Positions 12,101-60,504 of a DNA stretch of 64,000 nt are shown piece by piece; positions within the stretch are counted from its first letter, which is position 1; each line of letters begins with the position of its first letter. The notes below the pieces were generated by a model. The model worked only from the letters and a program-made list of their open reading frames with translations, ran no database searches and was not told the origin of the DNA. The stretch lies in contig CM097885.1 in NCBI GenBank assembly GCA_044892525.1, positions 35,528,001-35,592,000 of the forward strand. Direction: 5' to 3'. This DNA is from Schmidtea polychroa. Taxonomy: Eukaryota. The translations under genes and the position numbers were made by a program.

Positions 12101-13594
12101 GATAAATTATAAGTGGATGTCCTATTTCTATATTGTCTAACAACCTCATCATATTTTAAAATAGCTAAAATGCTATATAAAAAACATGAATCATCGGTGT
12201 TTTTTATATTAATTAAACAATATTTATTTTTTAGATAAGTAGGTAGTTCAATGAAACTCCTACCACTTAATCTACTTAACCTACTTATTTTTGTTATAGT
12301 GAAGTGGATTTCTGTTATATTTTTTATAATCCAACTACTTCCTAACTCTGTAATATTAGTTATTTTCTCATTTAGTTCCCTAATACCTTCATCAAAAAAT
12401 GATGCAGTTAAAAGTTTTGCGTAATTGGAGATATTATTAACCTTTATTTCCCCGTCTTTTTCAAATTCGATTGTTATTCCGAATTGAATTTTGACGGAGC
12501 CTAATTCGTTAATAATATCTCGTAATTTTATAATTAATTGTTCAGGAAATATTATTTCCTTTATATTTAAGTCGCTAGTATTTAAACTTAATATTTGTTG
12601 GGTACCCCTTAGATCTTTTTGTATTATGGGAACATTACCCCCTATTTGTATTATATTTAATCCATCCCAAGAATCAAAGGAATTGAATAATCCGACCTGG
12701 GATTCAACAAAAGGCAATCCGACCTGGGATTCAACAAAAGGCAATTTGACCTGGGATTCAACAAAAGACAATCCGTCCTGGGATTCAACAACCAATCCAT
12801 CATTGGATTCAACAAAAGGCAATCCAGCCTGGGATTCAACCTCTAATCCGACCTGGGATTCAAAAGAAGAAGTATCTAATTTAATTTTTTTATTTGTATT
12901 ATTTTTTTCTATAGTTGAGGGTCTTTTAAAAACACTATCTTTTTTAAAATTAAACCTATCTAAATGATGTTTATGTTTATTATAAAAAACGCTATATGTT
13001 ACAGGGTCACTAGTCTTACATACGGGACATATAAAATATGTTTTATTATAATATTTTTTCGTGTAATAATTCTCCATTATAGAATGGCAATTATTATCAT
13101 GTTCTTTCGATGAACAATAATTTGGATAAAGTATACCTATAAAATAAAAATTTAATAAAAAAAAATATATAATTTAAATGAAATATTTTAATAAATGTTT
13201 ACGCATAAATTTACAAATTTTATTTACTAAAAAATAAAAATTTACTAAATTAAAAATATTAACATTTAATTAAATAAAAAATTATATTAAATTTCCTTTA
13301 AATTATATAAAAAAGTAATCAATACTTACATTGTAAATTTTCATTTCGATTTATTGACACATTGACAAAATTTTTCTCTTTATTCGTATTACCTAAATTA
13401 TTAATTAATTAAATCAATAAATAAAAAATTATGTTTACTTTTTCTTTTCAAATTTCCTTTAATCTTCGATTTTAAATTGTCTTCATTAATATTATCTAAA
13501 TTAATTAATAAATTAATTAATAAATAAATTAAAATTTACCAAATTCCTGAATTTTTCCTCGAACATTCATAACGTTTTCTATTAAAGAATTCAT
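9187..13594 (-). CDS. Intact pPolB, spliced: exons 13594-13540, 13495-13439, 13392-13330, 13136-9187
   Basis: Uninterrupted 1296-aa ORF with exonuclease and polymerase motifs (YADFE, FHNLKGYD, YIDINNLYG, KLLNNSLYGK, GDTDS), an endonuclease VII-like DHDH..C..CN insert and an INIKNTDDSCF OTU-like motif. Three GT-AG phase-1 introns (44, 46, 193 bp) join three upstream exons in frame. Confidence 0.92.
12668..12862 (-). repeat. Coding ~27-bp tandem repeat (VESQVGLPF) in the pPolB N-terminal region
   Basis: Repeated CCTGGGATTCAACAAAAGGCAAT units. Confidence 0.9.
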
Positions 13595-25934: not shown

Positions 25935-26267
25935 AGTAGTGAGGAATCTATGCACCCCAGCACCCCCACCCTAAAAAAAAACAGCGCTATTGACCCATAT
26001 TTTCCACATTTATATGCTTTTTTACCCCATATTCTTCACTTTTTTTAACTTTTAAACTTTGTCCCCTATTGCCATTAACCCTTAATTTCTTCCCTTAAAA
26101 GTAAAAAAGTTCGGAATAGATGTATTTATAGATTAGTAATTCCGAGAAAAGGTAACGGGGTGCATAGATTCCTCACTACTTGGTCTTAAGGATTTAATGT
26201 TATAAGGATTTAATGTTATAAAAATATCAGATTACCTAATTCATAATGATCTAGGTCGCCTGATCAC
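25935..26267 (+). repeat. Left TIR of B, with an internal inverted copy of the terminal 24 bp at 26157-26180
   Basis: Near-perfect reverse complement of 40834-41165. Confidence 0.96.
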
Positions 26268-26313
26268 CTTAAGGTTTTGAAAGTTTTAAAAATAAAAAAT
26301 ATTATGAAATAGT

Positions 26314-26702
26314 AAAACTGCTCTGAGAGGACAGTGGTTTTTTTTTTTTTTTTTTCACTGTCCTCTCAACAGTTTTTTTTTTGATCCGGATCATTTTTTT
26401 TTATTCAACCTCTTTCGTTTATCAAATCTCTTCCAATATACAAGCTGGCCAGACTCATACATCAGAATCAATTCGATAATAGCAGCACACCTTATTATTC
26501 GCTTCTCGCTCGAATACGATTTCATCGGCGTTTTAAGTGTGCTGCTCGAAAGTACAAATGAATTCGAAAGCGAATCCGAAAGAGGTCCGAAAACAACTGA
26601 GAAATAAATGTGCACATTACCGGAATCGATCCGGGGGTGTTCGAAAGACAGGTGGCGATAATTACCGGTTCGCCACCATCACCCGTTTCAATATTTTTTT
26701 TT
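26314..26702. ncRNA. Putative structured RNA/ssDNA region
   Basis: 13-bp stem 26324-26336/26356-26368, 10-bp stem 26481-26490/26537-26546, 8-bp stem 26651-26658/26670-26677; five CGAAA motifs; T-run at the end. Confidence 0.4.
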
Positions 26703-26849
26703 CATATTTATGTTTAAAAAATAATTAATTAATAAAAAAATAAAATAAAATAAAATAAATAAAATAAAATATACAAGTACTTTATAAATATAAGATACCC
26801 ACACTATTATTTTCAAATTTTTAATATTATTTTATGTTGAAAAAAAACT

Positions 26850-26923
26850 AACCTCAGATGTGATTTGAACCACTATCCATTTGAACCACTGTGCCAGTCT
26901 ATTCCCACTGCGCCATCAAGGTT
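26850..26923 (-). ncRNA. tRNA-like putative Pol III gene 3
   Basis: A box TGGCGCAGTGG, duplicated B box GGTTCAAAT, followed by a T8 run; overlaps the end of ORF 26873-27169. Confidence 0.5.
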
Positions 26924-27169
26924 TGAATTTTTGTCATTTTTTAGACTATAAATAATCGATTCAAGTTCTTTAACTCTTTCCTGTAATTGTTTCATTTTCT
27001 TTAATCTTATATCAGCAACATCTACAGCCTTCATATAAAAATGTCGATACTTTTCATTATCTACCATCAACTCTTTGATGTATTCTAATGGTTCTTCTTC
27101 TCTTCTTTTCATTCTCTTATGTTTAACTTCATTCAATTCATTTCTCATTCTTTCTTTTAACTCATCCAT
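26873..27169 (-). CDS. Hypothetical small coiled-coil protein of B
   Basis: 98-aa ATG ORF with an AAAAATG context like other B genes; charged, helical composition. Confidence 0.55.
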   Translation of the reverse strand: MDELKERMRNELNEVKHKRMKRREEEPLEYIKELMVDNEKYRHFYMKAVDVADIRLKKMKQLQERVKELESIIYSLKNDKNSNLDGAVGIDWHSGSNG

Positions 27170-27337
27170 TTTTATAAATATTTTTTTATTGGATATATTA
27201 ATTTTTGGTAGCTTAAGTTAAAACGTTTTTGATCTTAAATTTCCAAGAGTTGCCGTTGACCAATCTCATTAAAAATTTGTACAAGTACTAAATCGAGTAT
27301 GCTGATCAATATTTCGTTAAAAAAAATTGAAAAAAAA

Positions 27338-27410
27338 TGACCGAAATGGGATTTGAACCCATTGGTATTGGCAATGCAGTCGAGTGCTATTACCACTAAG
27401 CTATTAGAGC
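27338..27410 (-). ncRNA. tRNA-like putative Pol III gene 2 (GCA at the anticodon position, anticodon stem unpaired)
   Basis: 73 nt; A box TAGCTTAGTGG; D stem GCT/AGC; perfect T arm ATGGG-TTCAAAT-CCCAT; T-run immediately downstream. Confidence 0.62.
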
Positions 27411-27579
27411 TATACTCAATATAAAATAAGTTGTTAATGTGTGACTATTTATTGATGAAATTGATAATTAATTATTCATTTTCTCGACAACTACCACTCA
27501 GATCCATCTGAAAATTTAAATATATACTAAAATAAGTACGCTGAATCAGATTCCGTTGAAAAAAAATATCGATAAAAAT

Positions 27580-27653
27580 TGACCAAAATCGAAAATTGAA
27601 CCCGGTACTCCCGGTGATAAAATTGAAGCCTATTCCCACTCAGCTATAATGGC
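27580..27653 (-). ncRNA. tRNA-like putative Pol III gene 1
   Basis: 74 nt; A box TAGCTGAGTGG; B-box-like GGGTTCAAT; same GGTCA 3' end as gene 2; T5 downstream. Confidence 0.5.
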
Positions 27654-27709
27654 TTACATAATATATTTAATTATTCCTATTTTATGTGTGTAAATTTTAA
27701 TATATAAAA

Positions 27710-29002
27710 ATGAATAACATAAATCTTAAAATTCAAGAAAAAAATAAATTAAATATTGATTATAATAAAGAATTTACTCATGAAATTAAAAAAAATGATA
27801 TTTTAAAAATCTCCCCTACGTCAGGATCGATTGCAAACTTAAATCGTAGGGGTGATATAGTTTTTCAATCTCTTCAAACATCAAACCCTATAGATATTTG
27901 TAATGCCAAATTATATTATAAAATCGAATTAGAAATTGAAGCAAACAAAGATATAACCCTAGAAAATAATTTCTTTCCAAATTTATTCTCCAACATGAGA
28001 TTAAAACTAGGATCATCAGAAATTGAAACTGTTTTGCATCCGGGAGTATATTCTACAATGTTAAATTTTATTTTGACTGGTTGTGATTATAAAAACGAAT
28101 ATGGTGAATTAACAGGTTGGATTCCTGATGTTAATAAAGGGGATTTAGATAAAGATGGTTTAGATGTAAACCATGGTTACCATAAAAGAGCTGAACTTTA
28201 TAAATCTAAAAAATTTGAAGGTTATTTTGAATTAAAACACTTGTTTGGATTCCTTCAAAACTATAATCGTATACTTCATAATGTTTTTATAGAATTCATC
28301 TGTAATAGAGTAGAAGGTGATAAAAGATTGTTCTATGGAGCTGTAGATACAAAAGCTAAATTAAAATTATCAACACTTGAATTACATATACCTGAATGGA
28401 CATTAAACCCACATTCTGAGATTAAACTCCTTGAAAGATTAAATTCCAACAAGTCTATAAATGTAAATTATTTAAATAGAATCTGTAGTGAATTTAGTAT
28501 GACAGAGGGTTCAACATATTCTATAAAGGTAGCAAATTTAGCATACCGACCAAGATATATCTTGATTGGATTCAAAGAAGTAGATTCATCTTTCCAAAAA
28601 AATAACAACTTGTTTATTCAAAAGATTGGAGTTGATAATTTAAAAACAATCCAAATTCAATTAAATAGTTCTTATTATCCAATAAATAGAATGGAATTTA
28701 ATATTGAAAATAATGAAAACATATTCCCATATCTAAATTATATTGAAACATGTTATGATTTCAAAGTTGAACCGCAATTAAGTTTAGAAGATTTCAAAAA
28801 TTTATATTCTATATTTTGTATAAATGTTTCAGACCAAGATGATCGCCTAGCCATAAATAATGTTGATGTTACACTTCATGTAACAAAGGATTCTAATTTT
28901 AAAGCTAAAGTATATACATTAATATTAGAAGAAAAGAAAATAGAAATGAAATTATATGGTGGAAAGATTTCAATAATCGAAAATGTTAGGGGAGATTCTT
29001 GA
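27710..29002 (+). CDS. Double jelly-roll major capsid protein of B
   Basis: 430 aa; NLNRRGDIVF, NNFFPNLFS..L, PRYILIGF, LNSSYYP, IFCINVS motifs typical of Polinton MCPs; gene context. Confidence 0.85.
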   Translation: MNNINLKIQEKNKLNIDYNKEFTHEIKKNDILKISPTSGSIANLNRRGDIVFQSLQTSNPIDICNAKLYYKIELEIEANKDITLENNFFPNLFSNMRLKLGSSEIETVLHPGVYSTMLNFILTGCDYKNEYGELTGWIPDVNKGDLDKDGLDVNHGYHKRAELYKSKKFEGYFELKHLFGFLQNYNRILHNVFIEFICNRVEGDKRLFYGAVDTKAKLKLSTLELHIPEWTLNPHSEIKLLERLNSNKSINVNYLNRICSEFSMTEGSTYSIKVANLAYRPRYILIGFKEVDSSFQKNNNLFIQKIGVDNLKTIQIQLNSSYYPINRMEFNIENNENIFPYLNYIETCYDFKVEPQLSLEDFKNLYSIFCINVSDQDDRLAINNVDVTLHVTKDSNFKAKVYTLILEEKKIEMKLYGGKISIIENVRGDS

Positions 29003-29031
29003 TATAATCCCTGATATTTTAACATTTTAAA

Positions 29032-30441
29032 ATGTCTCTAAATAAATATTGGAGATGTGAAAGTTGTAATTGTCAAGTTACAAGACATCATAAAGCAAGT
29101 CATTTAAAAACTAAAAAACATACAGGAGGTGATCTAATTCCACGAGCTGGAGGCGATTTGCAATCTTCAAAAACAACATCTTCAATATTAAAACCTTTTA
29201 CTACAGAAAAATATCCAGGTGAAAGACATTTATTTAAACACAACTATACTGGACCAGGAACACGTCTAGATATTAGATTAGATGAAAATAATAATCCCAA
29301 ACAAGGAGAAGAACCAATAAATAGAATTGATCAAGCAGCTTTAAAACATGACATTGCATACAATTCAACAAATCTTAGAGATAGACATGTTGCAGATGTG
29401 AATTTAATACATGATTTAAATAGTATCCAAAATCCATCAACCCAAGAAAAGGTTCAAAGAGCTCTAGTTAAATTAGCAATGAAAGGTAAGATTTTCATAG
29501 GCTTAGGACACAGTCCGATCACCATGGGTGCAAGACTTCCTAGAATAGCAAAAGATGTTGCTTATAAAAAGATTATCGAACAATCAGACATTGAAAGATC
29601 CCTCGAGAGTACAGCCAAGACTAGTTTACAAACCCCAACAGAATCAGAAATAAAATATGCAAAGGAATTACACCATGAATTTAGAAAAAATAAAAAATAT
29701 TTAAAAGTTCAAGTACATGAAAAAGATCAAACATGGTCTGCAGATTTAGTCTTTATGCCCAAATCATCAGACCCTGAAAAATATAAAATAATTTTAACTG
29801 TAATAGATTTATATACAAGATTTGCTTTTGCAAGGTGTTTAGAAAATAAAACAGGATATTCTATTACAGAAGCATTTGAAAATATATTTGAAGAAAATCA
29901 AAGAATCCCAAAATATTTATGGTGTGATAAAGGAACAGAATTTTATAACAAAGTTTTTACAAAGTTTTTAAATGAAAATGATATTAAATTATATTCAACA
30001 GAAAACGAAGGAAAAGCAGTCGTAGTTGAAAGATTAAATAGAACATTAAAAAATAAAATGTGGAAATATTTTACTGCTATTGGAAAACAAAAATGGAACA
30101 ATGAATTGTTACAAAAGATTGTAAATGAATATAATAATGATGTACATAGTTCTATAAAATTAACACCTTTAAATGCTTCCATGAAGCCTGAAACCATTAA
30201 AGTGGTAAATATTGAAAATGATGTTATTGAAAAACCAAAGTTTAAAATTGGTGACCGAGTAAGAATATTTAAATATAAAAATTAATTTGAAAAAGGATTC
30301 ACAGCAAAATGGACAAATGAAATTTTTATTATAAATAAAATAAATTATACAACTCCAATAACATATAGCATCTTTGATTTAAATAATGAAAAAATATTAG
30401 GTAGATTTTATAATAATGAACTACAGAAAACTGATTTTTAA
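29032..30441 (+). CDS. Zinc finger + parvovirus-type PLA2 (PLA2X) + rve integrase fusion, with a premature TAA at 30283-30285
   Basis: CESC..H..H; HNYTGPGT..D.AALKHDIAY; WSADL, IDLYTR, CDKGTEF, VERLNRTLK. The frame continues after the stop as FEKGFTAKWTNEIF..GRFYNNELQKTDF*. Confidence 0.92.
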
Positions 30442-30452
30442 GTCGACAAGCC

Positions 30453-31244
30453 CTAAAACAAACTTTTCCATATTTCAGCTTCTTCTCTATCCAAATAAAT
30501 ATAATTATATTTTTCTTTCCAATGATTATCAACAAACATATCAAACATATTCTTATCAGGTTCAACATTTGAAAATAAATCATTATAAATCATATTCTTA
30601 TCACGGCGATCTAATTTAAAAAATATAAAACAATTGGAATTATTTCTTATTGAATTTTTATCTAAAGCATAATATGTTTGAGATATATAAATAACATTAC
30701 AATTATTATGTCGACCTCGTGTAAAGTAACTCTTTTGAATCTCTTGATTTTTCATGTTGACAACATCATCAAATATAACTAGATTCTTTTTATCTTTAGG
30801 AAGTAAATCACAATGTAAAACATCTTCAGGTTTATTAGAGAATAAAACTTGAATTGCCTCCTGCCCTTCTTCACAAATATAATCATTTTTATTACTAATA
30901 TCTGATTCTAAAATCTTTTCCTTATACCAATCAACCATATCACAAGGTTGAAAAACTTCTTCAGGACACCTATGTTGATTTTTAAAAATATCAATTATTG
31001 CTTTTTTAGTTAATTTATTTTCAAATCCACATTTCAAAAGTTGTAATTCTGGTTGATTTATGGTTGTAGAATAAAAGATTAAATTATTATAATCTAAAAA
31101 ATCATCTTCAAGTAACATTCTCAAAACAAGTACATTCTTTCCACATCCAGAAGAACCAACAATTAATAATCTAAAATTATCAGGAAATACTTTATTATTG
31201 AATTTACTCTTATGTCTATTTAAAATTGGTTTCCAAGTATCCAT
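30453..31244 (-). CDS. A32/FtsK-like DNA packaging ATPase
   Basis: Walker A GSSGCGKN (variant), Walker B LVIFDD, FTRGRH..ISQ, IRNNSN. Confidence 0.93.
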   Translation of the reverse strand: MDTWKPILNRHKSKFNNKVFPDNFRLLIVGSSGCGKNVLVLRMLLEDDFLDYNNLIFYSTTINQPELQLLKCGFENKLTKKAIIDIFKNQHRCPEEVFQPCDMVDWYKEKILESDISNKNDYICEEGQEAIQVLFSNKPEDVLHCDLLPKDKKNLVIFDDVVNMKNQEIQKSYFTRGRHNNCNVIYISQTYYALDKNSIRNNSNCFIFFKLDRRDKNMIYNDLFSNVEPDKNMFDMFVDNHWKEKYNYIYLDREEAEIWKSLF

Positions 31245-31260
31245 TTTTATTTATTATAAA

Positions 31261-31839
31261 ATGACAACTGAAGAATCTTTGCAAGAATTAATAAATTCAA
31301 ATAAAAATAAATCAGTAGTAATTGATGGTAAAAAATATTTTATTGGAAAACATGTAAAAGAACAAGTTAGAGCGAAGCTCCACGAAGCTAAAGAAGGTGG
31401 CATTCTTCCATTAGCTGCTTTAATACCTGCAATCATTGCTGGTTTATCAGGTGCTGCTGGAATAGCTGGAGGAATTGCAACTACAGTTCAAAAAGCTAAA
31501 GAATCTCAAAAGACAGACCTAGAAAAAGAAAAACTACAAACTGAAATCGATTCAATGAAGAAGGTAGGGCAAGCTAAAGGGGGAGTGTCCGTTGGAAAGG
31601 GTCTCTATCTTAATCCATATGAGGGGAGTCGGCAAAAGTCTCAGGGCAAAGGTCTCTATCTTGATCCTTATAAAGGTAGAGGTTTAAATGATTTTTTAAA
31701 AAATCAAATTTCTACATCTGAATCTTTATCTTCAAAAGATAAAGAAGATTTAAAAAAAATATGTAAATCTTTAAAGAATGGATGCCTTTGTAAAACTAAA
31801 AATGGTAAAGGATTATACTTGAAGCCCTTCGAACTATGA
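31261..31839 (+). CDS. Putative virion core / membrane-active precursor with adenain-type cleavage repeats
   Basis: ATG 31261; EGG-ILPLAALIPAIIAGLSGAAGIAGG hydrophobic segment; three GKGLYLxP repeats. Confidence 0.7.
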   Translation: MTTEESLQELINSNKNKSVVIDGKKYFIGKHVKEQVRAKLHEAKEGGILPLAALIPAIIAGLSGAAGIAGGIATTVQKAKESQKTDLEKEKLQTEIDSMKKVGQAKGGVSVGKGLYLNPYEGSRQKSQGKGLYLDPYKGRGLNDFLKNQISTSESLSSKDKEDLKKICKSLKNGCLCKTKNGKGLYLKPFEL

Positions 31840-31861
31840 TACCATTTTTGATACCATTAAA

Positions 31862-32755
31862 ATGGTATATGAAGAAAGATTAGCACTTTTAAAAAAATTA
31901 CAATCAGAACAAGATAAATATAATAAAAAAGATACAACTCAACATGCTGAATCTATAATATTAAATGAGGTAATAACACAACAACAGGGGCCAACAATTA
32001 AAGCTATAAAAGAGTTGGAAGATTTCAATGAGCAAGCAAAATTTAAAGAGTTAGAAGATAAAAAACAAAAAATAAAAGAACTAGAGTGGCAGGATAAAGA
32101 AAAAGAATCCAGTGAAAACCATCCTGAAAGTCATTCTGAAAGAAATCAAAGAAAACGCAGAAGAATTTCTAATGTGGAAGAAGAAGAAATGTTTTTAAAA
32201 ACAAAACCTCTTAAAGTTGATCCTAAAATTAGAGATGATTTACCTCCTTCAATTAGACCCACATTTAATACTAATACTGAAGGATATCAAATAATAACAA
32301 TTAATAAACAAAACTTTACTTTATATTCAAATTCAGAAAATAAATCACGTATTCATTCACAAAATGTTTATAATAATGAATATTTAGACTTTGAATTTAC
32401 AGATGATTTTTATAGATTACTTTGTGGATATTCTTCAGATGATGTTGAAGAAATTAAAAAATATTTAAATTTAATAAAATTAATAAGAGCTAGTTCTAAA
32501 GCAAAATATATTCAAGATTTAAAGAATTATTTAAATAAAAATGAAAAGGGTTATGTTGTTACAGAGGGAGAGGGATTAATTAGTGAAGGTGGTAAACCAA
32601 ATCCCATCAATCTTTTTATTGAATTAAGAAAACTATTAGCTGCAAGGAAAGCAGGACATAATAATTTAGATTCTGATATTTTAAAGATTTCTAAAGATTT
32701 GTTAAAACAAGGAATAATTTCAAAAGATAAATTTAATAAGTATACGAAGTTATAA
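31862..32755 (+). CDS. Conserved Polinton protein of unknown function (putative virion protein)
   Basis: C-terminal GEGL..LRKLLAARKAGHNN..I..I...L...GII motif recalled from Polinton proteins. Confidence 0.65.
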   Translation: MVYEERLALLKKLQSEQDKYNKKDTTQHAESIILNEVITQQQGPTIKAIKELEDFNEQAKFKELEDKKQKIKELEWQDKEKESSENHPESHSERNQRKRRRISNVEEEEMFLKTKPLKVDPKIRDDLPPSIRPTFNTNTEGYQIITINKQNFTLYSNSENKSRIHSQNVYNNEYLDFEFTDDFYRLLCGYSSDDVEEIKKYLNLIKLIRASSKAKYIQDLKNYLNKNEKGYVVTEGEGLISEGGKPNPINLFIELRKLLAARKAGHNNLDSDILKISKDLLKQGIISKDKFNKYTKL

Positions 32756-32777
32756 ATACGAAGTTTTAAAATACAAA

Positions 32778-33203
32778 ATGACTCCTTCAATATTAGATTT
32801 TTTAAAAACATTTGGAATAAATGCAAAAACAAATTTTGATTTAAAAGATTATGCAAATTATTTAAATTTAAAAATTAAAATATTAATGAATGATGAATTA
32901 TCAAGTCTGGAGAGTCCCCTGAATATAATAATCAATTATCAAAATTCAAATGAAAAAGGATCTCATTGGGTTTGTATATATAAGAAATCTATCTACTTTG
33001 ATTCTTTTGGGATTAAACCTACTAAAGAAGTTGAAGATTATCTCTTGAGGGGTTCTCCGATTGATTCCCCAAATGGTTATACTTTTAACTCTTTACAAGT
33101 TCAACCTTTGAATACTAAAATATGTGGTATTTTAAGTTTATATGTTTTGTATAGATTGAATAAGGGAGAGAGAAAGGGCATACGCAGGATTTTGAATCTA
33201 TAA
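32778..33203 (+). CDS. Adenain-like cysteine maturation protease
   Basis: GSHWVC, YFDSFG, Q..NTKICG give the His-Asp-Gln-Cys catalytic pattern. Confidence 0.92.
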   Translation: MTPSILDFLKTFGINAKTNFDLKDYANYLNLKIKILMNDELSSLESPLNIIINYQNSNEKGSHWVCIYKKSIYFDSFGIKPTKEVEDYLLRGSPIDSPNGYTFNSLQVQPLNTKICGILSLYVLYRLNKGERKGIRRILNL

Positions 33204-33289
33204 TTCAAGAAATTTATAATGATCTAGAATCTCTACTATAAGGATTTTTACTATAAGGATTTTTACTATATGAATTTACTACTAAAGAA

Positions 33290-34054
33290 ATGGAGCTTCA
33301 CAACCCTCCGGAAGATAATTTAAAAAAAATGGTAAACATAATGTCAGATAAATATTCAAGAACTTTATCTATAAATTCAAAAGAATCAGACTTTACTGTA
33401 AACTTTCAAGATTCAATTAAATTAGATCAAAATTTAAATTATGAATTGGGGCTATTATGGTTTTGTGCTTATAATACTATTTTTAATATAACTAAAGATA
33501 ATAATAAATTTACTATTTAAACTCGTGATGGGCATAAACCAGAAATTATAACAATAGAACCTGGGGCATATGAGATAAAAGATTTAAATGATATACTTTC
33601 TAAAAAAACAAATGAAGGTATTAAAATTAAAATGGATATACCAACTTCAAAATGTGTAATGACTTTGAAGAATATAAAAATTAGTTTTTTAGATAATTGT
33701 TTCTTTCACACAGTTTTAGGATTTAAACCTATGGATATAACAATAAAAGAAGATAAAATAATAACATCAGAACATATTATAAAAATAATAAATACAAACA
33801 CAATAAATATTCATTGCGATTGTATAACAGGTTCTTATAATAATGGTAAACAAACAAATGTTTTATATTCCTTTCCCTCAAACACAGTTCCTATGGGATA
33901 TAAAATAGTTGAAAGAATGAATCCTCCAAATTATTTACCTTTATGTAGAAAATATATAATGGATATTAATTTTAAAATTCTTAATCAAGAAGGAGAATTG
34001 ATTGATTTTAATGGAGAAGAGATTTCAATGTATTTACATTTGAAACAGGTTTGA
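33290..34054 (+). pseudogene. Minor capsid (penton-like) protein of B with an in-frame TAA at 33518-33520
   Basis: Both ORFs share a frame; YELGL..YNTIFNIT..NNKF, PGAYEIKDLN, INIHCDCITGSYNNG, PMGYKIVE, IDFNGEEI. Confidence 0.88.
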
Positions 34055-34078
34055 AGATTCATTTTAAATTATTAATAA

Positions 34079-35089
34079 ATGAGTTCTTATATTCCATGTA
34101 ATAGAGGTGGTGGAACAATAAAAACAGGGTTTAATACAGAAGAAATATTAACTTTAACAGAAAATAAATATATTAATGAAAGAGGTGATTCAATGAAGGG
34201 TGATTTAATTTTAAATGGACACAAGATAAAAGAATTATCTTTTCCAACTGATGAAGCTGATGCAGTTAATAAGAAATATGTAGATGGTGTTAAAAAATAT
34301 ACTGATTTAACAACAACAAGAATTGAAAGTTCATTAACAACAAAAATTGATTCAATGGAATCAAAGCTTAATAATATCGAACAACGATTTAATGATAAAT
34401 TTGACAAGTTACAAAGTCTGTTAACTGAACAAGTTGTAAAGTTAAATACTGCTATATTAAATTCTAAAGATAAACAAATTATGAATACTAAATTTAATGC
34501 AATATATAATATAATAAATGAGATGATTACATCATTTAATAAAAGAATTTCAAATTTAGAGTCTCATGGAACACACATTAACACCACACATAGTATTAGA
34601 AAAAGAGCTGCTGAATTAGAACAGAATAAAACATTATTACCCCATACATTTAAACATTTTATAGAACCAAGTTTAATAACAACAAACAGTAAAGAATGGG
34701 GTGTTTTTATGGTTGTAAAAATTATTGATCCTTATTTCTTTTTGTTTGATGATGATAATGAAAGAATGAAATGGTTTGTGAAATGTGATTATAATAGTAA
34801 GCTTGAAAAGGGTGATGTTATAATGACTAGTTATGATTTACCACACGGAGATTGGTATGTTAATACTCATTCACATGGACTACATAAAGTTAAAAGTAAG
34901 AATATTCATTTTTCTAGTTCACTTGTACAATATATAGATTTAATATTTTATGAAAAAAAGGTTGATGTTGATGAAGTTCGTAAAGCATTGAGAGAATTGT
35001 ATAAAGATATCCTCTCAACAAGAGTTTCTTTTGATATCCGAGTATTGGTACCAGATGGTGCTCAGAAGAATAAAGTCTTATTTTTTTAA
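34079..35089 (+). CDS. Putative fibre/spike protein
   Basis: GDSMKGDLILNGHKIKELSFPTDEADAVNKKYVD fibre-type repeat, then coiled coil and a globular C-terminus; follows the penton gene. Confidence 0.6.
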   Translation: MSSYIPCNRGGGTIKTGFNTEEILTLTENKYINERGDSMKGDLILNGHKIKELSFPTDEADAVNKKYVDGVKKYTDLTTTRIESSLTTKIDSMESKLNNIEQRFNDKFDKLQSLLTEQVVKLNTAILNSKDKQIMNTKFNAIYNIINEMITSFNKRISNLESHGTHINTTHSIRKRAAELEQNKTLLPHTFKHFIEPSLITTNSKEWGVFMVVKIIDPYFFLFDDDNERMKWFVKCDYNSKLEKGDVIMTSYDLPHGDWYVNTHSHGLHKVKSKNIHFSSSLVQYIDLIFYEKKVDVDEVRKALRELYKDILSTRVSFDIRVLVPDGAQKNKVLFF

Positions 35090-35097
35090 TTATTAAA

Positions 35098-35688
35098 ATG
35101 GAAGAAGTAAGAGAAGAAAAAATTTACCCAGAATTGAGATCATCAGGATATTATTCTTCTAAGGCCTCGGCTCCCACAGAACTTGAAATTATGAGAGTAA
35201 AAGAATTTAAATCAGAAACCTTACATTTACAAGATTTATTAAAGCATTATAAAAAAATTAAAAATAGATGGAATAAAGGGAATACAGTTTTAAAAGTTAT
35301 AGGTTATTCTTTAGGATTTGCATCTGCAATATTAACAGTTATTTTACCCATAACTTTACCAGTTGTTACTCTTGCACCTGTAATACTTGGAAGTATTTCT
35401 GTGGCTGATGGTTTCTTAACTGAAATAGTTTCATTATCTTATACTTCTAAAAAGAAAAGTTTATATAGAGAAGTTTGTTTATCAATAGAATTAGGAATCT
35501 CTAAATTATTTTTATTTCAATTAAAAGCTTTGGAAGATGGAATCCTGACAGACGAAGAAATAATGAAATCAAATCAAATAATACAAGATATAAAGAATGA
35601 GGTTATAAGATTAAAAATGGAGGGCATGGTGGCTAATGTTATAAGTAATAAAAAAACATCTCGAGAAAAATGGTTAAAGAATTCTTAA
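35098..35688 (+). CDS. Membrane-hairpin protein (resembles the adintovirus GasderminX family)
   Basis: Basic helix, ~40-aa hydrophobic hairpin, KKK, KALEDGILTDEE. Confidence 0.6.
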   Translation: MEEVREEKIYPELRSSGYYSSKASAPTELEIMRVKEFKSETLHLQDLLKHYKKIKNRWNKGNTVLKVIGYSLGFASAILTVILPITLPVVTLAPVILGSISVADGFLTEIVSLSYTSKKKSLYREVCLSIELGISKLFLFQLKALEDGILTDEEIMKSNQIIQDIKNEVIRLKMEGMVANVISNKKTSREKWLKNS

Positions 35689-35788
35689 TTATAAAATGGG
35701 TGTATTTTTAAAAAAGTAGATCAGGTTGCTATAGTTGCTTAAATTAATTGTCGACATTTTATTATTAAAAAATTAAATATCGTTGGTT

Positions 35789-36343
35789 TCAGTTATGGTT
35801 GAAAGCCAACCTATGAATCATTAATTTATGATCTTTAAATTCTTTATCACTTAGACCTTTTATATATTCAGGATCAGTATTAAAATATTTAAGTTCTAAA
35901 CATATAGGATTAAAAACTTGAGAATATAAAGGTTTCTCGATTTCTCTCTCGGGATAAATAATTTCAACATTATAAATATCAAGATCAGTAATCTTTGTAT
36001 CATATAACTTATTCAACTTTTCTAGATTTTTTATTATAGGGATTAAATTATTTCCAATAGGTAGAGTTGTCTTTAAATCACTTAGTATGAATCTCTTATC
36101 ATCATAATTTGATAATGATATTTTTTGAGATTCTATCAAGTGAATATCATGGTTTTCACTTTTAAGTTGATGTATTTCATCAATTTTATCTTTATGATTT
36201 GGATTCAATGTATCTATATAATCTTGATGAGAAAGATTCTTTGCAACCACTCTCTGTATTCCTTTACATCTGTTATCCTTTAAATTAGTAATATTTTTTA
36301 TAATTTCAAAAATGTTATTTTCTTGATTTTTAGTTTCCATCAT
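35789..36343 (-). CDS. Stand-alone paralogue of the pPolB C-terminal (thumb + tail) region
   Basis: KGIQ..HQDY..LKSE.H.I.L..NYDDKRFILSDLKTTLPIGN.LIPIIKNL..LKYFNTDPEYI shared with the adjacent pPolB; has its own ATG. Confidence 0.8.
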   Translation of the reverse strand: MMETKNQENNIFEIIKNITNLKDNRCKGIQRVVAKNLSHQDYIDTLNPNHKDKIDEIHQLKSENHDIHLIESQKISLSNYDDKRFILSDLKTTLPIGNNLIPIIKNLEKLNKLYDTKITDLDIYNVEIIYPEREIEKPLYSQVFNPICLELKYFNTDPEYIKGLSDKEFKDHKLMIHRLAFNHN

Positions 36344-36367
36344 TTTATAGTGTTAAAATTCTAATTC

Positions 36368-39300
36368 TTAGACCAGTCGTAATTGATTTATAATTATTTC
36401 TGCAGTAATGCTTTTTAACATTAATTTATGTGATTTAGAGTCTTCTGGTGTTAGTCCTTGGATATATTCAGGATCAGTATTAAAATATTTAAGTTCTATA
36501 GGTTTTATATTTTGAACTTGATTATATAAAGGTTTAGGAATTAATATTTCAGGATATTGGATTTCTACTTTAGCAAGTTGAAGGTCTGTAATCTCTAGGT
36601 TATAAATTTCATTTATTTTATCAAGATTTTTTATTATAGGGATTAAATCATTTCCAATAGGTAATGTTGTCTTCAAGTCAGAAAGTATAAATCTTTTATC
36701 ATCATAATTTGTTATAGCAATCTTGTTACACTCTTCAAGATATATATTATGTTTCTCTGATTTAAGATGATGGGTTTTAGCAATTTTATTTTTATAATTT
36801 ATATTTAATGAATCTTTATACTCTTGATGTGTGAAGGTTTTTGACACTGATTTTTGAATTCCTTTACTTTTATTTTCTTTATAGCTTTTCGGGTTTTCAG
36901 GGAATGAAGGATATTCAAATGTGTGATCTATTTCAACAGATCCTTCTCCCTCCCCTATTATAAATTTTATTGTATGCTCTTTCATAATTGGTTTGTCTTT
37001 CATTTCAAGAGAATATTGTTTAGGTCTAATAAACACTCCTCCACTTATTGGAGTATTTGGTTTTTCATCTTTAAAAGTAAATAATTCTCCAGAGTTGTTT
37101 ATTAATTTATTTAAGGTTTCGTTTTCACTTATTTCCTTTTTTAAATCTTTACTATGACCTTTTAAAAACATACTATCAGTGTCCATAGCATGCATGGATA
37201 TTCGATCTCCAAAATGGGGTACTAGAACATCATAGTAGGTCTCATACATTTGAAGCTTTGAAAGTTCTAAAATTGAAAAATCTATAAAGATTGGTTTATT
37301 ATAAGTTTTTACAGAGTTTTTAATCTCTATAGCTATAAGGTTACTAGAGAATATCTCTGCATTTTTAAATGTAGGCTTTCCAATTATTCGATTATATTTA
37401 TTAAGATCTTTTGTTGTATTGGTTAAGAGCTCTACACGAGTATATTTATCAATATTCTCCATTGTCTTTCCAAAGACTGCATTGTTTAAAAGTTTATAAA
37501 TCATATCAAGAAAAGCATTTCCAGCTCTCTTTGCTGCATTTCTTTTTAAGATATTTCCCTCGATGAATTTTTTCATAAAAGGAGCTTGTCGAAATTTAAT
37601 TATAGAATGTACTTTTTTTAAAACCATTCCATATGAGAGATAAAACTGGAGGAGTCTATAATGACAAAGATAATCAGTTTTATCTGTTTGATCACATAAA
37701 AGTTTTATACATGGTGTTCTATTCTGAGCAATCTGCCAATCTGATAGTTCTTCAGGAGAGATCTTTCTTCTTACAGGAGCAAATGGAAAATATCTAGTTC
37801 TGGATTTTATTTCATTGGGATATTCAAGATCACATTCTACAACATATCCAAATTGAGAATCTTTTGGTGTTTTTAGAATTTCTTGTATTAATTCCTCAGT
37901 GGGTTCTGTCCAGGTGAACTTGCCAATTGAAAGGTATTGAGTCATTACTCCCGCATATAAAGCTGTTGCATCTATATACATTATTTCAGAAGGATTAGAA
38001 AGACCTTCCATTATTTCCTTACGATCTTCTGGGTTTGTTATTTCTACATATAGAGCATCAGGATCTTTGAAAAATTTAGGATAAAGAGTTGTAAAATTAT
38101 TAGCATTTATTTCTCTATTCCCTTGTACTGAAGAAATACCTCCTCTAATATTATGTTTATATACATTAAACATATCAAGCTCAACTAATAATTCAATAGT
38201 TTTATTTCTTACTGCTACATCTTCATCAGTCCATATGGTATATAATAATATATCCCAAGCTAGAGAGGGAGCGGTTATATAATTATAAGGTTTTAATTCA
38301 AAAGCTTTTGAAAATGTCTCGAAGCAATCAGCTAAGATATAAACATCCAAGGAAAGATACATGTCAGTATATTCTCCAAGGTTTCTACAGTTGAATAGAT
38401 TCCACATTTTAACTGCACGGGAATATTCCTGATCAGAAATCCCTGATTGTGTTAAAACAGAAAAGAAATCTTCTTGGGGTGGGAGTAATTCATTATATTT
38501 TTCAAAGGAGTCTATATAATCATATGAATAGATTCCTTTTGCTAGACAGGTATTATATTCCTCTAATGGAATATTGTTTTTTAATAACACATGTTCTTTT
38601 GTATATTTAAAATCCTCAGGGTTCATAGTTTTAGCAATCCCATCCAAAGACATCCCTAAGAAATTTAACGAGTCCAAAAACTTAAAGCATCCATATTGAA
38701 TGCTTTTATATTTTTCTTTTGTAAGTCCAATAACCTTGAAAGAGATTTTAGCATTTGCGGCCAGATGCTTAATGAATAGGTGAATATCATAGCCAAAAAG
38801 ATTGTGAAATATAAATGGTATGTGTGTTGGTTTTTTACAATTGAGATTACATTTTTATGGGCTGCTCCTCTGTAATTATTTTCTCTTTTAAAATGATCAT
38901 GGTCTGCAACCTTTGGCTCCTCATCCTCCTCCTCCTGAATATCAAACTCTTGTTTACACATCCAGCAGTGTGTTGCATTTTTATATTCTTCCTCTTGTTC
39001 TTCTGAAAAATTCATAGGAAAGTTGGATTTTAATATTATATATAATTCATGTTCTAGATTATTTAAAGTTTTAACAAAATGATCTAGAGTCTCTTTGTCA
39101 GAAGTTCCTCTAAATGAATATTCTCTAGATTCTACAAGTTCTGGATAATTACTTTTAAAAAACATTTTATAAGCAGAGGGTAATTGTTTTGTTAGTTTTA
39201 CAGTATTAGTTTTTGTTCGTCTTAGTTTTACATTTATAGCTTCAAAATCACAATAAACCACTCCCAATGCTTCTAATAGATTGGAATAGTTTTTAAACCT

Positions 39301-40760
39301 CATATTAGCATTTTTCTTGTGTGGCATTTTTATTAAAGCAGGTTGATTCTTACAACAGAGTCTCTCATGTTTAATAGCAGCAAGTTTTGAACTTGAATGA
39401 TATAAACATCTTTTACAACATATGCCTCCACGAATGAGTGTGTTTCCTTTCATAAAACTTTGAAAATTCTTTATTAAGATATAATGAAGTTTTTTATCTA
39501 ACATAGTGCCTCCGGACGCAGTGCTTTCTGCTTCTGGTTCTAATGAAATGCCTTCTTCTGCTTCTCTCCTCGGGTGAACGCTTTGAACCTCTTCACCATA
39601 TTCTTCTCCATCAAAGTCTTCATCTGGTTTACCTTCTTCTAATATTAAAAGATCTACTTCTCTCTTTTCATCTGAGATTTCCATGTTAGAAATGTAAATA
39701 GGAATAATGTGTTTATAATTTTTATTTTTTCTAGTTTTTGTAATTTTGGTTGGAATGAATTGATAAATATTAATTTTAAGATTATTTAATTTTTCAAATG
39801 CTGGAACATCTTCAATTTTCATTGGGTGGGAAAAATCTTTTGGATAAATTAATTCAGATTCATATTCTTCATATTTTTGAACTCTCTGTGGGTTAGTTGC
39901 TTGAGGATGTAAGTGTGCAAGTATTGACCATTGAAAACATTTATTATCTTTATTCTGTACATTTATAACATGGTTGGAGGTGAATGGTGTGTGAATAAAA
40001 GATTTAGGATTTGGTGGTGCGCCTCTCCAGTATTCAATCTCTATATTTTGAAAAGAGTGGAATCTTAAATTAGATTCTCCTAGTTCTTGTTCCACCTGTT
40101 CTTGTTTTTCTTCCAATTCTTTAGCTATATCATTAACAAGTTTATTTCCTGCTTTTGTAGAAAATAAATATTTATATGAGGTTTCAATTTTTACATCTAG
40201 AGGCATTGCGATTGAATCATCTCCTCTCCAGTATTTTGCATTTCCTGTAAATTTAACTTTTATAACATTAAATCTTGATCTACCAAATTTTTTTATAGCA
40301 TCATCCATTGATGATATTATTTTTTTTTATTTTCTCTTATATATTGCATGATTGATCTGGGTCCTCGTTTTACTTCTACAATTACATCGGTGTGATTGAA
40401 GTTGTCCCAATTAAACTCTAGTTTTTCAGCTTTTTCAGTCATTGAGTTTGAATCAGAATCTTTTGCTTCAAGACCACAATCTTCTATGTGTCTTAAGTAA
40501 AAAGATTTTATCTTCATCTTTTTTCCACATGCTGAACATTCGAATATTTCTCTGTTTTTAGGAACTCCAATACAATTTTTAAAATGCTTCTTATAACCTG
40601 AAAATAAATATCTATCCTTACATTTAGAACAGATTTTGGAATTAGTGTCATCTAGTGTGTTAGCTTTTATTAAATGGTCTTTTGATTTTTTATGAGATGT
40701 TAAAGCAGTTTTATTTTTAAAATTTTTTTCACAAATTTCACAATTGAAAATAGCTTCCAT
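36368..40760 (-). pseudogene. pPolB of B with N-terminal C2H2 zinc fingers, split by two single-base frameshifts in A-runs
   Basis: Adding one A at 40320-40328 joins RENKKK to IISSMDDAIKK. Adding one A at 38852-38856 restores RGAAHKKCNLNC..FHNLFGYD. Motifs YCDFE, YIDATALY, KLLNNAVFGKT, MDTDS, RPKQY. Confidence 0.9.
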
Positions 40761-40833
40761 TTTTAAAAGAATTTTTTGGTTGGATACGATGTTTTGGTTT
40801 TGATATTAATTTTTATTTTCTTTAAATCTAAAA

Positions 40834-41165
40834 GTGATCAGGCGACCTAGATCATTATGAATTAGGTAATCTGATATTCTTATAACATTAAATCCTTATA
40901 ACATTAAATCCTTAAGACCAAGTAGTGAGGAATCTATGCACCCCGTTACCTTTTCTCGGAATTACTAATCTATAAATACATCTATTCCGAACTTTTTTAC
41001 TTTTAAGGGAAGAAATTAAGGGTTAATGGCAATAGGGGACAAAGTTTAAAAGTTAAAAAAAGTGAAGAATATGGGGTAAAAAAGCATATAAATGTGGAAA
41101 ATATGGGTCAATAGCGCTGTTTTTTTTAGGGTGGGGGTGCTGGGGTGCATAGATTCCTCACTACT
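40834..41165 (-). repeat. Right TIR of B, with an internal terminus copy at 40921-40944
   Basis: Reverse complement of 25935-26267. Confidence 0.96.
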
Positions 41166-41171
41166 AATTTG

Positions 41172-42578
41172 GGAATGTTACATAGCCTCATCGGGCAATA
41201 GAGGTAAAAATTCTATATATTTGGCGGCTCTTTGGTGATTACGACCTATTTCTTCTCTTTTTAAAAGTGCAAGAATGCTATATAAGAAACACTTATGGTC
41301 GTTGTTTTTTACATTAATTATTGCATGTTTTAATTTTAATGCTGATGGGGTTTTTATATAGCTATGTCCGGATAATCTACTAACGGGTGCGTATTTCGTT
41401 AAAATAAAATCTATCTCTAAAATATTCATTACGCGCCACCCGCTTCCTAAATAGGTGAATTGCTCAATCTTTTCATTTAATTTGCTCACCCCCTCGTTTA
41501 TAAAGTTTGATGTAAAAACTTGAGCATTGTTTGAAAAATAATTATCCCGGATCTCCTCATCTTTTTCAAATTTAATTAAAATTGTAAATTGAATTTTTAC
41601 ATTGCCCATCTTTTCTATTTCCTCTATTAATCTTTCTTCAATTTTTGATGTTAGGGCTATTTTTACTAAGTTTTGATTTCTAATATCAAATTTTAAGGTT
41701 TTTCGCGATCCGTTCAAATCGGATTCTACCATAGGTTCAAACAAAGAGCCGCCTATTTGACATATGTTGAAAGACGTTGAAGCTACACATTCATCATTGA
41801 TGACTATCACTTCTTGTTGTGTAATGGGTGCGTGTTGTGTAATGGGTGCGTGTTGTGTGAAAGATGTTGAAGCTGATGACTATCACTTCAGGTCGCGATA
41901 ATTTATTCGGAATAAAATTGTTAATTAAACCAGCAGGTCTTTTAATAGAATCTTTTTTAATAATATTTATAGAATCTTTTTTAATAATATTTATAGTATC
42001 TTTTTTAATAGTATCTTTTTTAATAGTATCTGTTTTTTCTTTTATAATATTTTTTTTAATATTTTTTAAATCTTTTTTAATATCTTTTTTAATATCATCT
42101 TTTTTAATAATATTTTTTTGATTTTTTTGTAAATTTTTTTTATTTATTTTTTTATTTATTTTTTTAAATAAAACATTTTTTGAAATCGAAAATTGCCCTA
42201 AGTGACTATGATGTTTATTAAAAAATTCCCTATATTTTATTTTTTCGCTAGTCACGCATTTGGGACATATAAAAAAGTTGACTGAATTAAATGTTTTCCT
42301 ATAATATTTTTTCATTGTTCGGTGACACTGTTCGTTATGCCCAATTGAGGATTGACAATAATTTGGGTATAGTCTACCTGTTAAATAATAAAATTAAAGT
42401 TTTATTCTATATAGAAAACTATTTATTACATCTATAAGAAGTTATCATCATTTGTTATATAATTCAAATGAACTATATAACAAATGATGATAAATCCTTA
42501 TAGAAAATAGGTTAATATATTTGAGAGAATATGTTAAATATTAGAGTGACTATAGTATATACGTCAGATTATTATTTA

Positions 42579-42659
<81 letters not shown>

Positions 42660-42708
42660 AAAGAGAAGTAGCTGCATGCTCACTGCAAACTACTGTATAC
42701 GGGGTTTG

Positions 42709-42770
<62 letters not shown>

Positions 42771-42859
42771 AAAGAGAAGTAGATGCATGCTCACTGCAGA
42801 CTACTATGTAGCTGCATGCTTACTGCAAACTACTGTATACGGGGTTTGATTATTATTTA

Positions 42860-42892
<33 letters not shown>

Positions 42893-42952
42893 AAAGAGAA
42901 GTAGCTGCATGCTCACTGCAAACTACTGTATACAGGGTTTGATTATTATTTA

Positions 42953-43039
<87 letters not shown>

Positions 43040-43128
43040 ATAGAGAAGTAGCTGCATGCTCACTGCAGACTACTATGTAGCTGCATGCTTACTGCAAACT
43101 ACTGTATACGGGGTTTGATTATTATTTA

Positions 43129-43195
<67 letters not shown>

Positions 43196-44273
43196 TTAAC
43201 TACTGTAGATGCACATTGCAAACTACAAGAATTATTTTATAACTATAGTTTCGTAATCACTTTTTTAAATATTTTTATATTAATTTCATTATTTTCAGAA
43301 ACGTAGTATTTACTTCATAAATTCCTAATTTTCATCATAAATCATTTTCATCAAAAATATATAATTTTCGTCATATTTATTTTCAACATAATTTTCATCA
43401 TATAATCATAAATTTATAATTTTCGTCATATTTATTTTCAACATAATTTTCATCATATAATCATAAATTCATAATTTTCGTCATATTTTCATCATTTTCT
43501 TCATAAATCATTTTCTTCATAAATCATTTTCTTCATAAATCATTTTCTTCATAAATCATTTTCTTCATAAATCATTTTCTTCATAAATTCATCATAAGTT
43601 AATTATAAAAGTTTTTAAGAAAATAATGAAATTAATATGAAAATATTTAAAAAAGTGCTTATAAAATTTAAAAGAAATATAAAAATATATAAAAATAAAT
43701 AACTCTTACATTGCGATTCCATATCGGAATCAGAGTCCTCCTCAATAGAAACGACATTCATTTCATCGACCTCCTCAATAGAAACGACATTCATTTCATC
43801 GACCTCCTCAATAGAAGTGAAGGTATTATCTGCAATTGTTTCCTTGTCAACATAAGTGACGGCATTATCTTCAATTGAGTCCTCCTCTGCATCAATGTCG
43901 ACATTAAACGCTGAAAAAAATTTTTTTTTTAAATAAAATACTAAAGTAAAATAAATTTACTTTTTTCTTTGAAACCCTTGTTTTGCCCAACATCATTAAC
44001 TGGGGCATCATTTTGTTCAATAAAAACGACATCATCGTCGTCATCGCTAATAATAATAATAGGATCTAAAATATATAAAATTAATTTTAATAAAAATTAA
44101 AATGATAAATTTACCGAAGATATTTTCCACATTTAAAATTGTTTCATCTTCGGTAACTTCATACCAGTCGAATGGTTCTAAAAGAATAAAATAAAATATA
44201 ATAAAATAAAATAAAATAAATTACCAGTCGTCGTCAACAGATTTCGTAGAATTCTATTATTAGTGTTCTCCAT
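41172..44273 (-). pseudogene. pPolB of element A, spliced 5' part: exons 44273-44225, 44177-44115, 44065-43961, 43910-43710, 42377 onward
   Basis: Four GT-AG phase-1 introns (47, 49, 50, 1332 bp) give an open frame into QCRLYPNYC..H...CH..MKKYY, homologous to pPolB C. Frameshifts near 41800-41880 and ~41200. Confidence 0.85.
42575..43600. repeat. (ATT)n blocks alternating with GCTGCATGCTCACTGCA units, then 16-bp TCATAAATCATTTTCT repeats, within the large pPolB intron
   Basis: Direct reading; the GCTGCATGCTCACTGCAG unit also occurs twice at ~22798-22862. Confidence 0.9.
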
Positions 44274-45014
44274 TAAAATAGATTTTTGAAATTTTGAAAT
44301 AATTGTGACAAATTTTAGATTTGTCAATGTTTATAAAGAGAATGAATATTTTCCTGTCCCAGCCAATCAGAATATAGACACACACACATATACACCTAAT
44401 ATTTTACTCTCTCAACCAATCACACGCATGCATGTATGTAATGTAAATCATTCAAATTACATGTGACTGCCTTTGTTAGTCATGTCTTTGTTAACTTGCA
44501 CTGTGCATGCTTCAGGCAAAGGCAGTCTTTATGTTACAAATAATAATATTTATTTGAATAATAATAAAATTAATTAAAAATAATAATATTTTTCACAATA
44601 ATAATAATATTAATAATAATAATAACGTATATTACCAAATAGTATCACTACACCTAATAGTATCATTAATACTATATTTAGTGATACTATTTAAATAATA
44701 TCACCATATTAAAACATTGTATATGGAGTGTATATGGAGTGGAGTTCTGTAAGGCGTGGATTTCTTCAAACACCGAATCCCGATTAAATAACAAGTCTAT
44801 ACTTGATGAAAATGATTATTATGAGGACGTTGAGTATTTGGATGATGATGATGAATAAATTTTTGATAATTATCTAAACTTATTTTTTATTAAAATGACC
44901 AAAGCACTGAATAATATCACTATACTAACTCTAATATCTAATATATTTTTTTTGGTGATATTATTTTTATAGTATCACTGATACTATTCGGTGATATCCG
45001 TTAATAATAATAAT

Positions 45015-45550: not shown

Positions 45551-45577
45551 GATAACTTTTTGTGTTTCAATATACAT

Positions 45578-51455: not shown

Positions 51456-51526
<71 letters not shown>

Positions 51527-60433: not shown

Positions 60434-60504
<71 letters not shown>

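Follow-up and report, generated by a model that had tools for sequence, protein, structure and literature searches.

Polinton/Maverick elements of the adintovirus type encode a pPolB with the domain order TP-vOTU-Exo-Pol. An N-terminal OTU of pPolB has been described (PMC8502044), and the TP fold has been reported to be related to Y-family polymerases (10.1101/2024.03.18.585575). For intact Mavericks of vertebrates and nematodes, the core genes are reported to be intronless (PMC8097293; 10.1101/2022.07.12.499685). Splicing is described for the adenovirus E2B mRNAs that encode pTP and the polymerase (PMC11304566, PMC2397415), and introners have been found in Maverick-Polinton-like elements of dinoflagellates (PMC11957031), all according to the accessible excerpts of these papers. 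The literature searched, with Repbase reports and supplements outside its scope, held no report of a spliced Polinton pPolB leader or of SUMO-interacting motifs (SIMs) in one, and the excerpts of PMC12220804, 10.1101/2023.08.22.554363 and 10.1101/2024.01.15.575659 contain nothing on spliced pPolB.

Here we describe an inherited, spliced N-terminal leader on a Polinton pPolB, which grows by exon duplication. In the reading that we consider probable, four short coding exons, spliced in sister copies, likely join the main exon and add an acidic leader of ~140 residues. Its duplicated core likely binds host SUMO, and a cleavage before the terminal protein (TP) is predicted to remove the leader along with a zinc domain.

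Element A and the exons of its pPolB leader

The window (the whole 64,000-nt stretch of DNA that was analysed) is a nest of Polinton/Maverick elements in an AT-rich host genome of 781 Mb, here called G000. Element A, on the minus strand, carries genes for capsid, protease and pPolB, and sister copies go on with integrase and ATPase. The gene set typical of Polinton/Maverick elements was found, namely pPolB, retroviral-like integrase, packaging ATPase, adenain-like protease and capsid genes. The protease has a Pfam match at 45169-45636, and capsid, integrase and polymerase matches were obtained around element A and in sister copies, with Walker-motif ATPase and integrase frames at locus L097; the capsid frames of element A, which have no Pfam capsid match, were named from their position and resemblance. 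The window copy of A's pPolB is broken, because the reading frame of its main exon shifts near 41870 and element B is inserted into this exon at 25935-41165; the preliminary description of this stretch had omitted this breakage.

That description had proposed four phase-1 introns of 47, 49, 50 and 1332 nt and symmetric, in-frame exons of 63, 105 and 201 nt. Both proposals proved exact. All four introns are GT-AG and 82-94% AT, and the three exons lie behind a first exon of 49 nt, so that on the minus strand the leader exons run 44273-44225, 44177-44115, 44065-43961 and 43910-43710, with the main exon from 42377. The sequence PIIIISDDDDDVVFIE and the VVSIEEVDE repeat, which had been singled out, are both present in the element A leader. 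The features are listed below, where X1 and X2 are two runs of one study that are only guessed to be RNA and that both also contain unspliced contigs, and C is a further element of the window.

44416..44420, plus strand: distal CCAAT box, 143 nt upstream of the ATG and in inverted orientation to the gene, conserved in family copies
44363..44367, plus strand: proximal CCAAT box, 90 nt upstream of the ATG, candidate promoter element
44225..44273, minus strand: leader exon 1, 49 nt, with the ATG and a conserved NR-V/I-LR-x-LLT (pN 0.14 vs pS 0.62)
44178..44224, minus strand: intron 1, 47 nt, GT-AG, phase 1; an X2 contig from a sister subfamily has the exact joint
44115..44177, minus strand: leader exon 2, 63 nt, PFDWYEVTEDETILNVENIF, the most constrained leader exon; 63 nt in 54 parsed copies, dN/dS 0.08
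44066..44114, minus strand: intron 2, 49 nt, phase 1; X1 contig joint from the end of exon 2
43961..44065, minus strand: leader exon 3, 105 nt; in other copies this module and its intron occur as tandem duplicates
44063-44016, minus strand: SIMa-type and SIMr-type cores in leader exon 3, by consensus match
43911..43960, minus strand: intron 3, 50 nt, phase 1; X2 joints of sister subfamilies; donor form with 260 matches and joined form with 0 in G000
43710..43910, minus strand: leader exon 4, 201 nt, acidic, SDSDMESQ at its end; internal repeats differ among subfamilies
42378..43709, minus strand: intron 4, 1332 nt, filled with satellite and (TAA)n; splits the codon of the zinc domain's first Cys
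42200..42377, minus strand: start of the main exon, small Cys/His-rich domain, likely zinc-binding
41794..42199, minus strand: low-complexity K/I/D linker with the window copy's frame change near 41870; low pLDDT in the equivalent C stretch
41748..41759, minus strand: QIGG, predicted protease site just before the terminal-protein domain
41166..41747, minus strand: terminal-protein domain and vOTU start, interrupted by element B
25935..41165, no strand assigned: element B, second Polinton, with AGTAG termini seen, inside A's main exon
23126..25934, minus strand: rest of A's pPolB (remaining vOTU, exonuclease, polymerase), collinear with C residues 363-1260
13330..13594, minus strand: element C leader, exons 13594-13540, 13495-13439 and 13392-13330; main exon from 13136

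The long last intron measures 946-2074 nt across 42 copies. Pfam searches with leader exon 4 and the zinc domain gave no match, and an Atlas search with leader exon 3 gave no usable match. Upstream of the gene, a CCAATC element ~85-90 bp from the ATG had been proposed for both A and C. A CCAAT does lie at 90 nt in A and at 85 nt in C, but the sister A subfamilies examined differ, with CCAATG about 105-119 nt upstream. A CCAAT-type host promoter may drive a nuclear transcript of the gene.

Other features of these elements were also observed. The pPolB of element B (36368-40805) has a C2H2-like frame at its start, lacks evident leader exons and is spread over three frames here. Where the minor capsid gene of A starts, there is a 15.6-kb palindrome (48161-63797) with identical arms of 7070 nt and an AGTAG terminus. 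Element A's integrase, too, is interrupted by an intron (GT-AG, phase 1). It consists of an (ATT)n run of 42-111 nt directly after the catalytic-core QTDL motif, with a pattern match at six of the seven loci scanned (L097:3932-4033, minus strand; L092, L100, L102, L105 and L106).

Splice joints and conservation of the leader

In the putative-RNA contigs of X1 and X2, the reference is left exactly at predicted donors and the contigs continue with family exon starts. The joint across intron 1 is in an X2 contig (reference 7677-7730) and that across intron 2 in an X1 contig (reference 7433-7620), and the intron between module and last leader exon is represented by an X2 joint (7275-7341) plus five contigs with loose ends at 7341. 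For the module-to-module introns there is an X2 contig with a loose end at 7482 and a further joint whose letters are identical to an exon end plus exon start of locus L121. One more loose end lies at 43977. All the joints seen belong to sister subfamilies, the window copy's own joint not being among them. In G000, the searched joined forms have no match and the donor form has 260; an exact-pattern search there for X2's variant junction letters returned neither form, one pattern being mismatched to the L121-type exon. No leader splice joints were listed for runs X3 and X6. Run X7 had no contig on the A leader, a blank that carries no evidential weight. A further candidate joint, at 43738-43796, was rejected as a splice junction, since it reflects repeat-number variation that is present in X3 too. 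The short introns of the preliminary description are therefore matched by precise joints in sister copies, from putative-RNA contigs of one study, and in these copies GT-AG borders, frame-keeping exons and RNA-like joints are found together. For the last intron, one X2 contig diverges four bases into the donor with 24 letters remaining. This fits splicing because 11 of 51 main exons start with GTAAA (donors have G at +5 in 46/46 fully parsed copies), and the contig gives the last splice indirect support.

The family set was assembled from a DNA search in which 40 of 1461 candidates were scored and 39 places other than the window were taken, and from a further 20 places picked among the first 100 listed of the 260 donor-pattern matches. 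Of the resulting 60 loci, window included, 56 were parsed and 46 of these fully, using family exon-start motifs and not exon length; the copies are related, and the counts below are not independent events. In the 56 parsed copies, 207 of 212 internal exons (24 of 29 distinct lengths) have a length divisible by three, compared with 71 of 213 short introns and 15 of 42 long ones, which argues that the exon-length pattern is not due to chance. The splice sites, too, are conserved across the family.

Pairwise counts between eight subfamily representatives gave pS 0.65, pN 0.11 and dN/dS 0.08 for exon 2, whose synonymous divergence is near saturation, 0.13 for dN/dS of the zinc domain, and 1.37 for that of the module tail, which shows no purifying selection. 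Exons 1 and 2 are under purifying selection. The most constrained leader residues are an LxxLL pattern kept by exon 1 (44225-44273; LRNLL, LRGLL, LRSLL, LRTLL) and an FDW kept by exon 2 (44115-44177). Among the 51 copies with a located main exon, eight combine a clean leader with an open frame of 1300 or more codons, and in 25 the main frame is closed within 120 codons, mostly in an A-rich run behind the zinc domain. These closures fall at main-exon residues 60-120 of the A family, and a slippage hotspot or homopolymer assembly error are candidate causes. Taken together, the leader exons are supported as genuine coding exons of the pPolB precursor.

The beginning of the main exon shows what the leader was added to. 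With the first 59 residues of A's main exon as query, 15 homologues were obtained, and six of them start Met-x1-2-Cys in one frame (P0097, P0098, P0099, P0106, P0107 and P0109), while P0016 starts MLVQCPLYP; overall, the intronless homologues start Met-x1-3-Cys, with the Cys at residue 3-5. The last intron splits the codon of the homologous Cys in both A and C. Because of these two facts the leader is best regarded as a lineage-specific addition, and splicing would furnish the small folded Cys/His domain with its start as well as its first ligand. The last splice would thus provide what intronless relatives carry directly, a start codon and a first zinc ligand. Alternatively, the leader exons could be a separate small gene, and pPolB could begin with a Met inside the main exon. 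In line with this, there is no direct view of the last joint, 44/51 copies have an in-frame Met at main-exon residue 21, and some homologues are called from that Met. This possibility is nevertheless very remote, since in 46/46 fully parsed copies the last leader exon runs without a stop into a GTAAG donor, CAG serves as acceptor in 41 of the 42 copies where one was located, and the junction creates the very Cys found at residue 3-5 of the intronless homologues. We are therefore highly confident that the spliced leader belongs to pPolB.

Duplicated modules, SIM-like cores and predicted cleavage

The leader is modular at the DNA level, as the preliminary description had supposed, and this is practically certain: exon-plus-intron units are tandemly duplicated between copies. 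Leaders have 3-9 exons, the units follow one another at a spacing of 141 nt in up to six copies, module number varies from 1 to 6 among near-identical copies, and some exons are chimeras of a module head and an exon-2 tail. We suggest that the leader grew through duplication and unequal recombination of one exon-intron unit, which would explain why all introns are in phase 1. The exons had also been called skippable, in the sense that symmetric exons would be alternatively skipped and the number of SIMs tuned per transcript. The common phase of all introns would keep the frame in such transcripts, and one X1 joint, as mapped, links exon 2 with the reference's second module. However, this joint can equally be an ordinary junction of exon 2 with the first module, because modules share their start, and uniform phase follows from tandem duplication of exon-intron units and does not call for regulated skipping. 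No other skipping joint was listed, and no unambiguous one was found in the putative-RNA contigs, which drop rare forms. Regulated exon skipping is thus quite improbable.

Element C offers a comparison within the window. The final splice junction CAAT|GTAAG..AG|GTA is common to elements A and C, as proposed. The upstream exons had been said to show no clear similarity; this is right for the leader peptides, which are dissimilar, but not for the splice sites, since the three donors of C match A's donors 2-4 in order (TTTG/TTCG|, GAAAAA|, CAAT|). The C leader is basic and Asn-rich without any SIM match, and family C is far more numerous than A. A C-type leader at L103 shows the same kind of duplication as the A modules.

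Leaders and main exons are also found in other pairings. A-type leaders precede another main-exon subtype (SFFPRYC) at L025, L027, L029, L030, L031 and L119, and at L103:4185-5300 a C-type leader lies upstream of an A-like main exon. Such swapped pairings suggest recombination within the last intron. In addition, the pPolB genes of family C mostly lie back to back in inverted pairs, at a distance of 3-8 kb (150 of 5281 candidates scored; window 9187-13594; G000 examples, C1:118997034 and C1:119003941), and the single pair examined has no other Polinton genes between its arms.

A common donor scaffold with different peptides in A and C would be expected if the main use of the leader were to give the gene a start codon near the promoter and a first zinc ligand, while slippage and unequal recombination let its length and repeats drift neutrally and the leader was discarded on cleavage. 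The variation from 1 to 6 modules among near-identical copies and the unconstrained module tail point the same way. On the other hand, exon 2 keeps its 63 nt and its peptide at near-saturated synonymous divergence, and the SIM core changes conservatively (pN 0.15 vs pS 0.56; 60 conservative vs 7 radical pairwise changes). We consider neutral drift of this kind improbable.

This brings us to the SIM-like cores of the preferred reading. The SIMa, SIMb and SIMr consensus, as given in the accessible part of PMC3395311, was scored on 41 frame-clean leaders. A SIMr-type core (D-D/E-D-V/I/L-V/I-F-I/L) is present in all 41, with 1-6 cores per leader and two or more in 29; SIMa was found in 18/41, and SIMb in none of nine leaders printed. 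The proposal of SIM-like motifs thus holds in so far as a SIM-consensus core is conserved, in 41/41 clean leaders, and is amplified, but the motifs that had been stressed are not universal, VVSIEE occurring in 5/41 and the PIII-S type head in 28/41. A single SIMr core is found in 12-21% of composition shuffles (P 0.12-0.21), and the P-values for several cores are inflated by duplication. Exon 2, the most constrained part of the leader, is not SIM-like.

These observations have to be weighed against another possibility, in which the leader is a generic acidic tail for another partner, for instance activation-domain-like, or docking to histones or RPA-type proteins via the FDW and LxxLL-like motifs of exons 1-2, and the SIM match is a by-product of acidic, aliphatic composition. 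In its favour, exons 1-2 and not the SIMs are most constrained, one SIMr core is common in shuffles, C has no SIMs, and the homologues are not enriched in them: SIM-like matches in the 25 closest external homologues number 4 against 4.4 expected, although a few carry striking motifs. What speaks against it is that the duplicated unit centres on an acidic-hydrophobic core whose pattern is kept through many synonymous and conservative changes, and that 29 of 41 clean leaders have at least two cores, as in the multivalent SUMO readers described in the available part of PMC3901395. A generic tail therefore seems unlikely, although less so than neutral drift. SUMO binding by the duplicated leader core, which is read from sequence, is plausible at somewhat less than even chances. 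If it holds, the leader may act as a disordered tail through which the precursor docks at nuclear sites rich in SUMO.

SIMs were also considered as a trait of the whole clade, on the basis of P0006, P0009, P0012 and P0109, but the enrichment count (4 vs 4.4) did not bear this out. More SIM-like stretches (PEVIVISKDE, QEVIVINDE, KEVIEISDDDD) were seen in the main exon just before QIGG, in the window (41748-41880) and in other copies. A search of G000 for host SUMO recovered none, the 12 loci read being ubiquitin-like. G000 contains 828 ubiquitin-like candidates, many of them within long open frames of repeats; loci L136-L145 are ubiquitin-like, and L136 is a tandem array of divergent ubiquitin-like units.

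The place of the leader in the precursor was judged from a structure model of C residues 1-520, built with a 54-row alignment that includes A copies. The model has a folded part (1-70), a disordered stretch (72-160), QIGG at 163, an alpha/beta domain of four strands and two helices (170-290), and then a domain with invariant Cys317 and His421. Its best structural matches are adintovirus and MELD virus proteins (E 1e-20 to 1e-6), and the alpha/beta domain has weak Y-family polymerase matches (E 0.02-0.1). The model thus places TP-like and vOTU-like domains N-terminal to the polymerase, in the TP-vOTU order given in the available part of 10.1101/2024.03.18.585575. A PDB fold search with the zinc domain gave only weak C2H2 matches (E above 1), and a homologue search with C residues 1-330 found nothing.

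QIGG or QFGG is present in four local proteins aligned, and an xxGG ahead of the TP is found in 10 of 19 external homologues against 4.9 expected, at least 40 upstream residues being required and six of 25 dropped as too short. Adenain-type enzymes cut after GG, and SUMO itself ends in QTGG; the adenovirus site pattern is (M/I/L)xGG, from which QIGG departs at P4. Small basic proteins of these elements carry similar GG sites. The element's own Ulp1/adenain-type protease may cut at QIGG, and we give slightly better than even chances to a cleavage that would remove leader, zinc domain and linker there. The preliminary description had placed the extension on the terminal protein-polymerase precursor. 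The leader does not adjoin the terminal protein directly but lies upstream of the zinc domain and of the likely cleavage site, and is therefore probably cut off ahead of the terminal protein. In a more far-reaching version, the leader would be a SUMO-reading array with one motif per host-type exon and a valency of 1-6 set by exon duplication; it would be released with the zinc domain at QxGG by the element's SUMO-protease-like enzyme, and would steer replication to SUMO-marked chromatin or blunt SUMO-dependent silencing. We regard this version as speculative and rather unlikely as a whole. If SUMO binding is true, it would provide a testable link between Polinton replication and SUMO-based host silencing.

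Comparison with known systems

Element A has the same gene set as Polinton/Maverick elements of the adintovirus type, including TP-like and vOTU-like domains in the model. In the Polinton pPolB described in the accessible parts of 10.1101/2024.03.18.585575 and PMC8502044, nothing upstream of the TP resembles the leader and zinc domain. In contrast to the intronless Mavericks, introns are found here in pPolB, with its 3-9 leader exons, and in the integrase. As Polinton core genes are annotated as single open frames, such N-termini would have been missed. The 1-6 modules, chimeric exons and a SIM-free sister family form a natural series in which one can follow how exon duplication builds a new protein segment in a virus-like element.

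Like multi-SIM RNF4, as described in the excerpts of PMC3901395 and PMC3395311, the leader has several short hydrophobic cores with acidic flanks, N-terminal to a Cys/His-rich domain. Unlike RNF4, it comes without a RING domain or ligase evidence, and its putative SIMs are arranged one motif per exon. Like the dinoflagellate elements, these elements contain spliceosomal introns within a Polinton-like element. However, the dinoflagellate introns are transposon-made and mostly post-integration, whereas those described here are shared by inheritance among subfamilies and lie between exons that have no counterpart in relatives.

The pPolB precursor appears to require the host spliceosome even for its first zinc ligand, and this need would tie its expression to the nucleus, in parallel with the splicing of adenovirus E2B. 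In the adenovirus, too, the precursor N-terminus is trimmed by a viral protease, a likeness to the leader cleavage proposed here. Both are protein-priming replication genes in which splicing of an upstream exon to the main exon brings in the start codon, although, in the accessible HAdV-37 pTP table, the adenovirus coding exon is 9 nt long, against a repeat-expanding leader of 140-300 residues here. Adenoviruses also do not integrate, and they make pTP and polymerase as separate proteins, unlike the Polinton pPolB.
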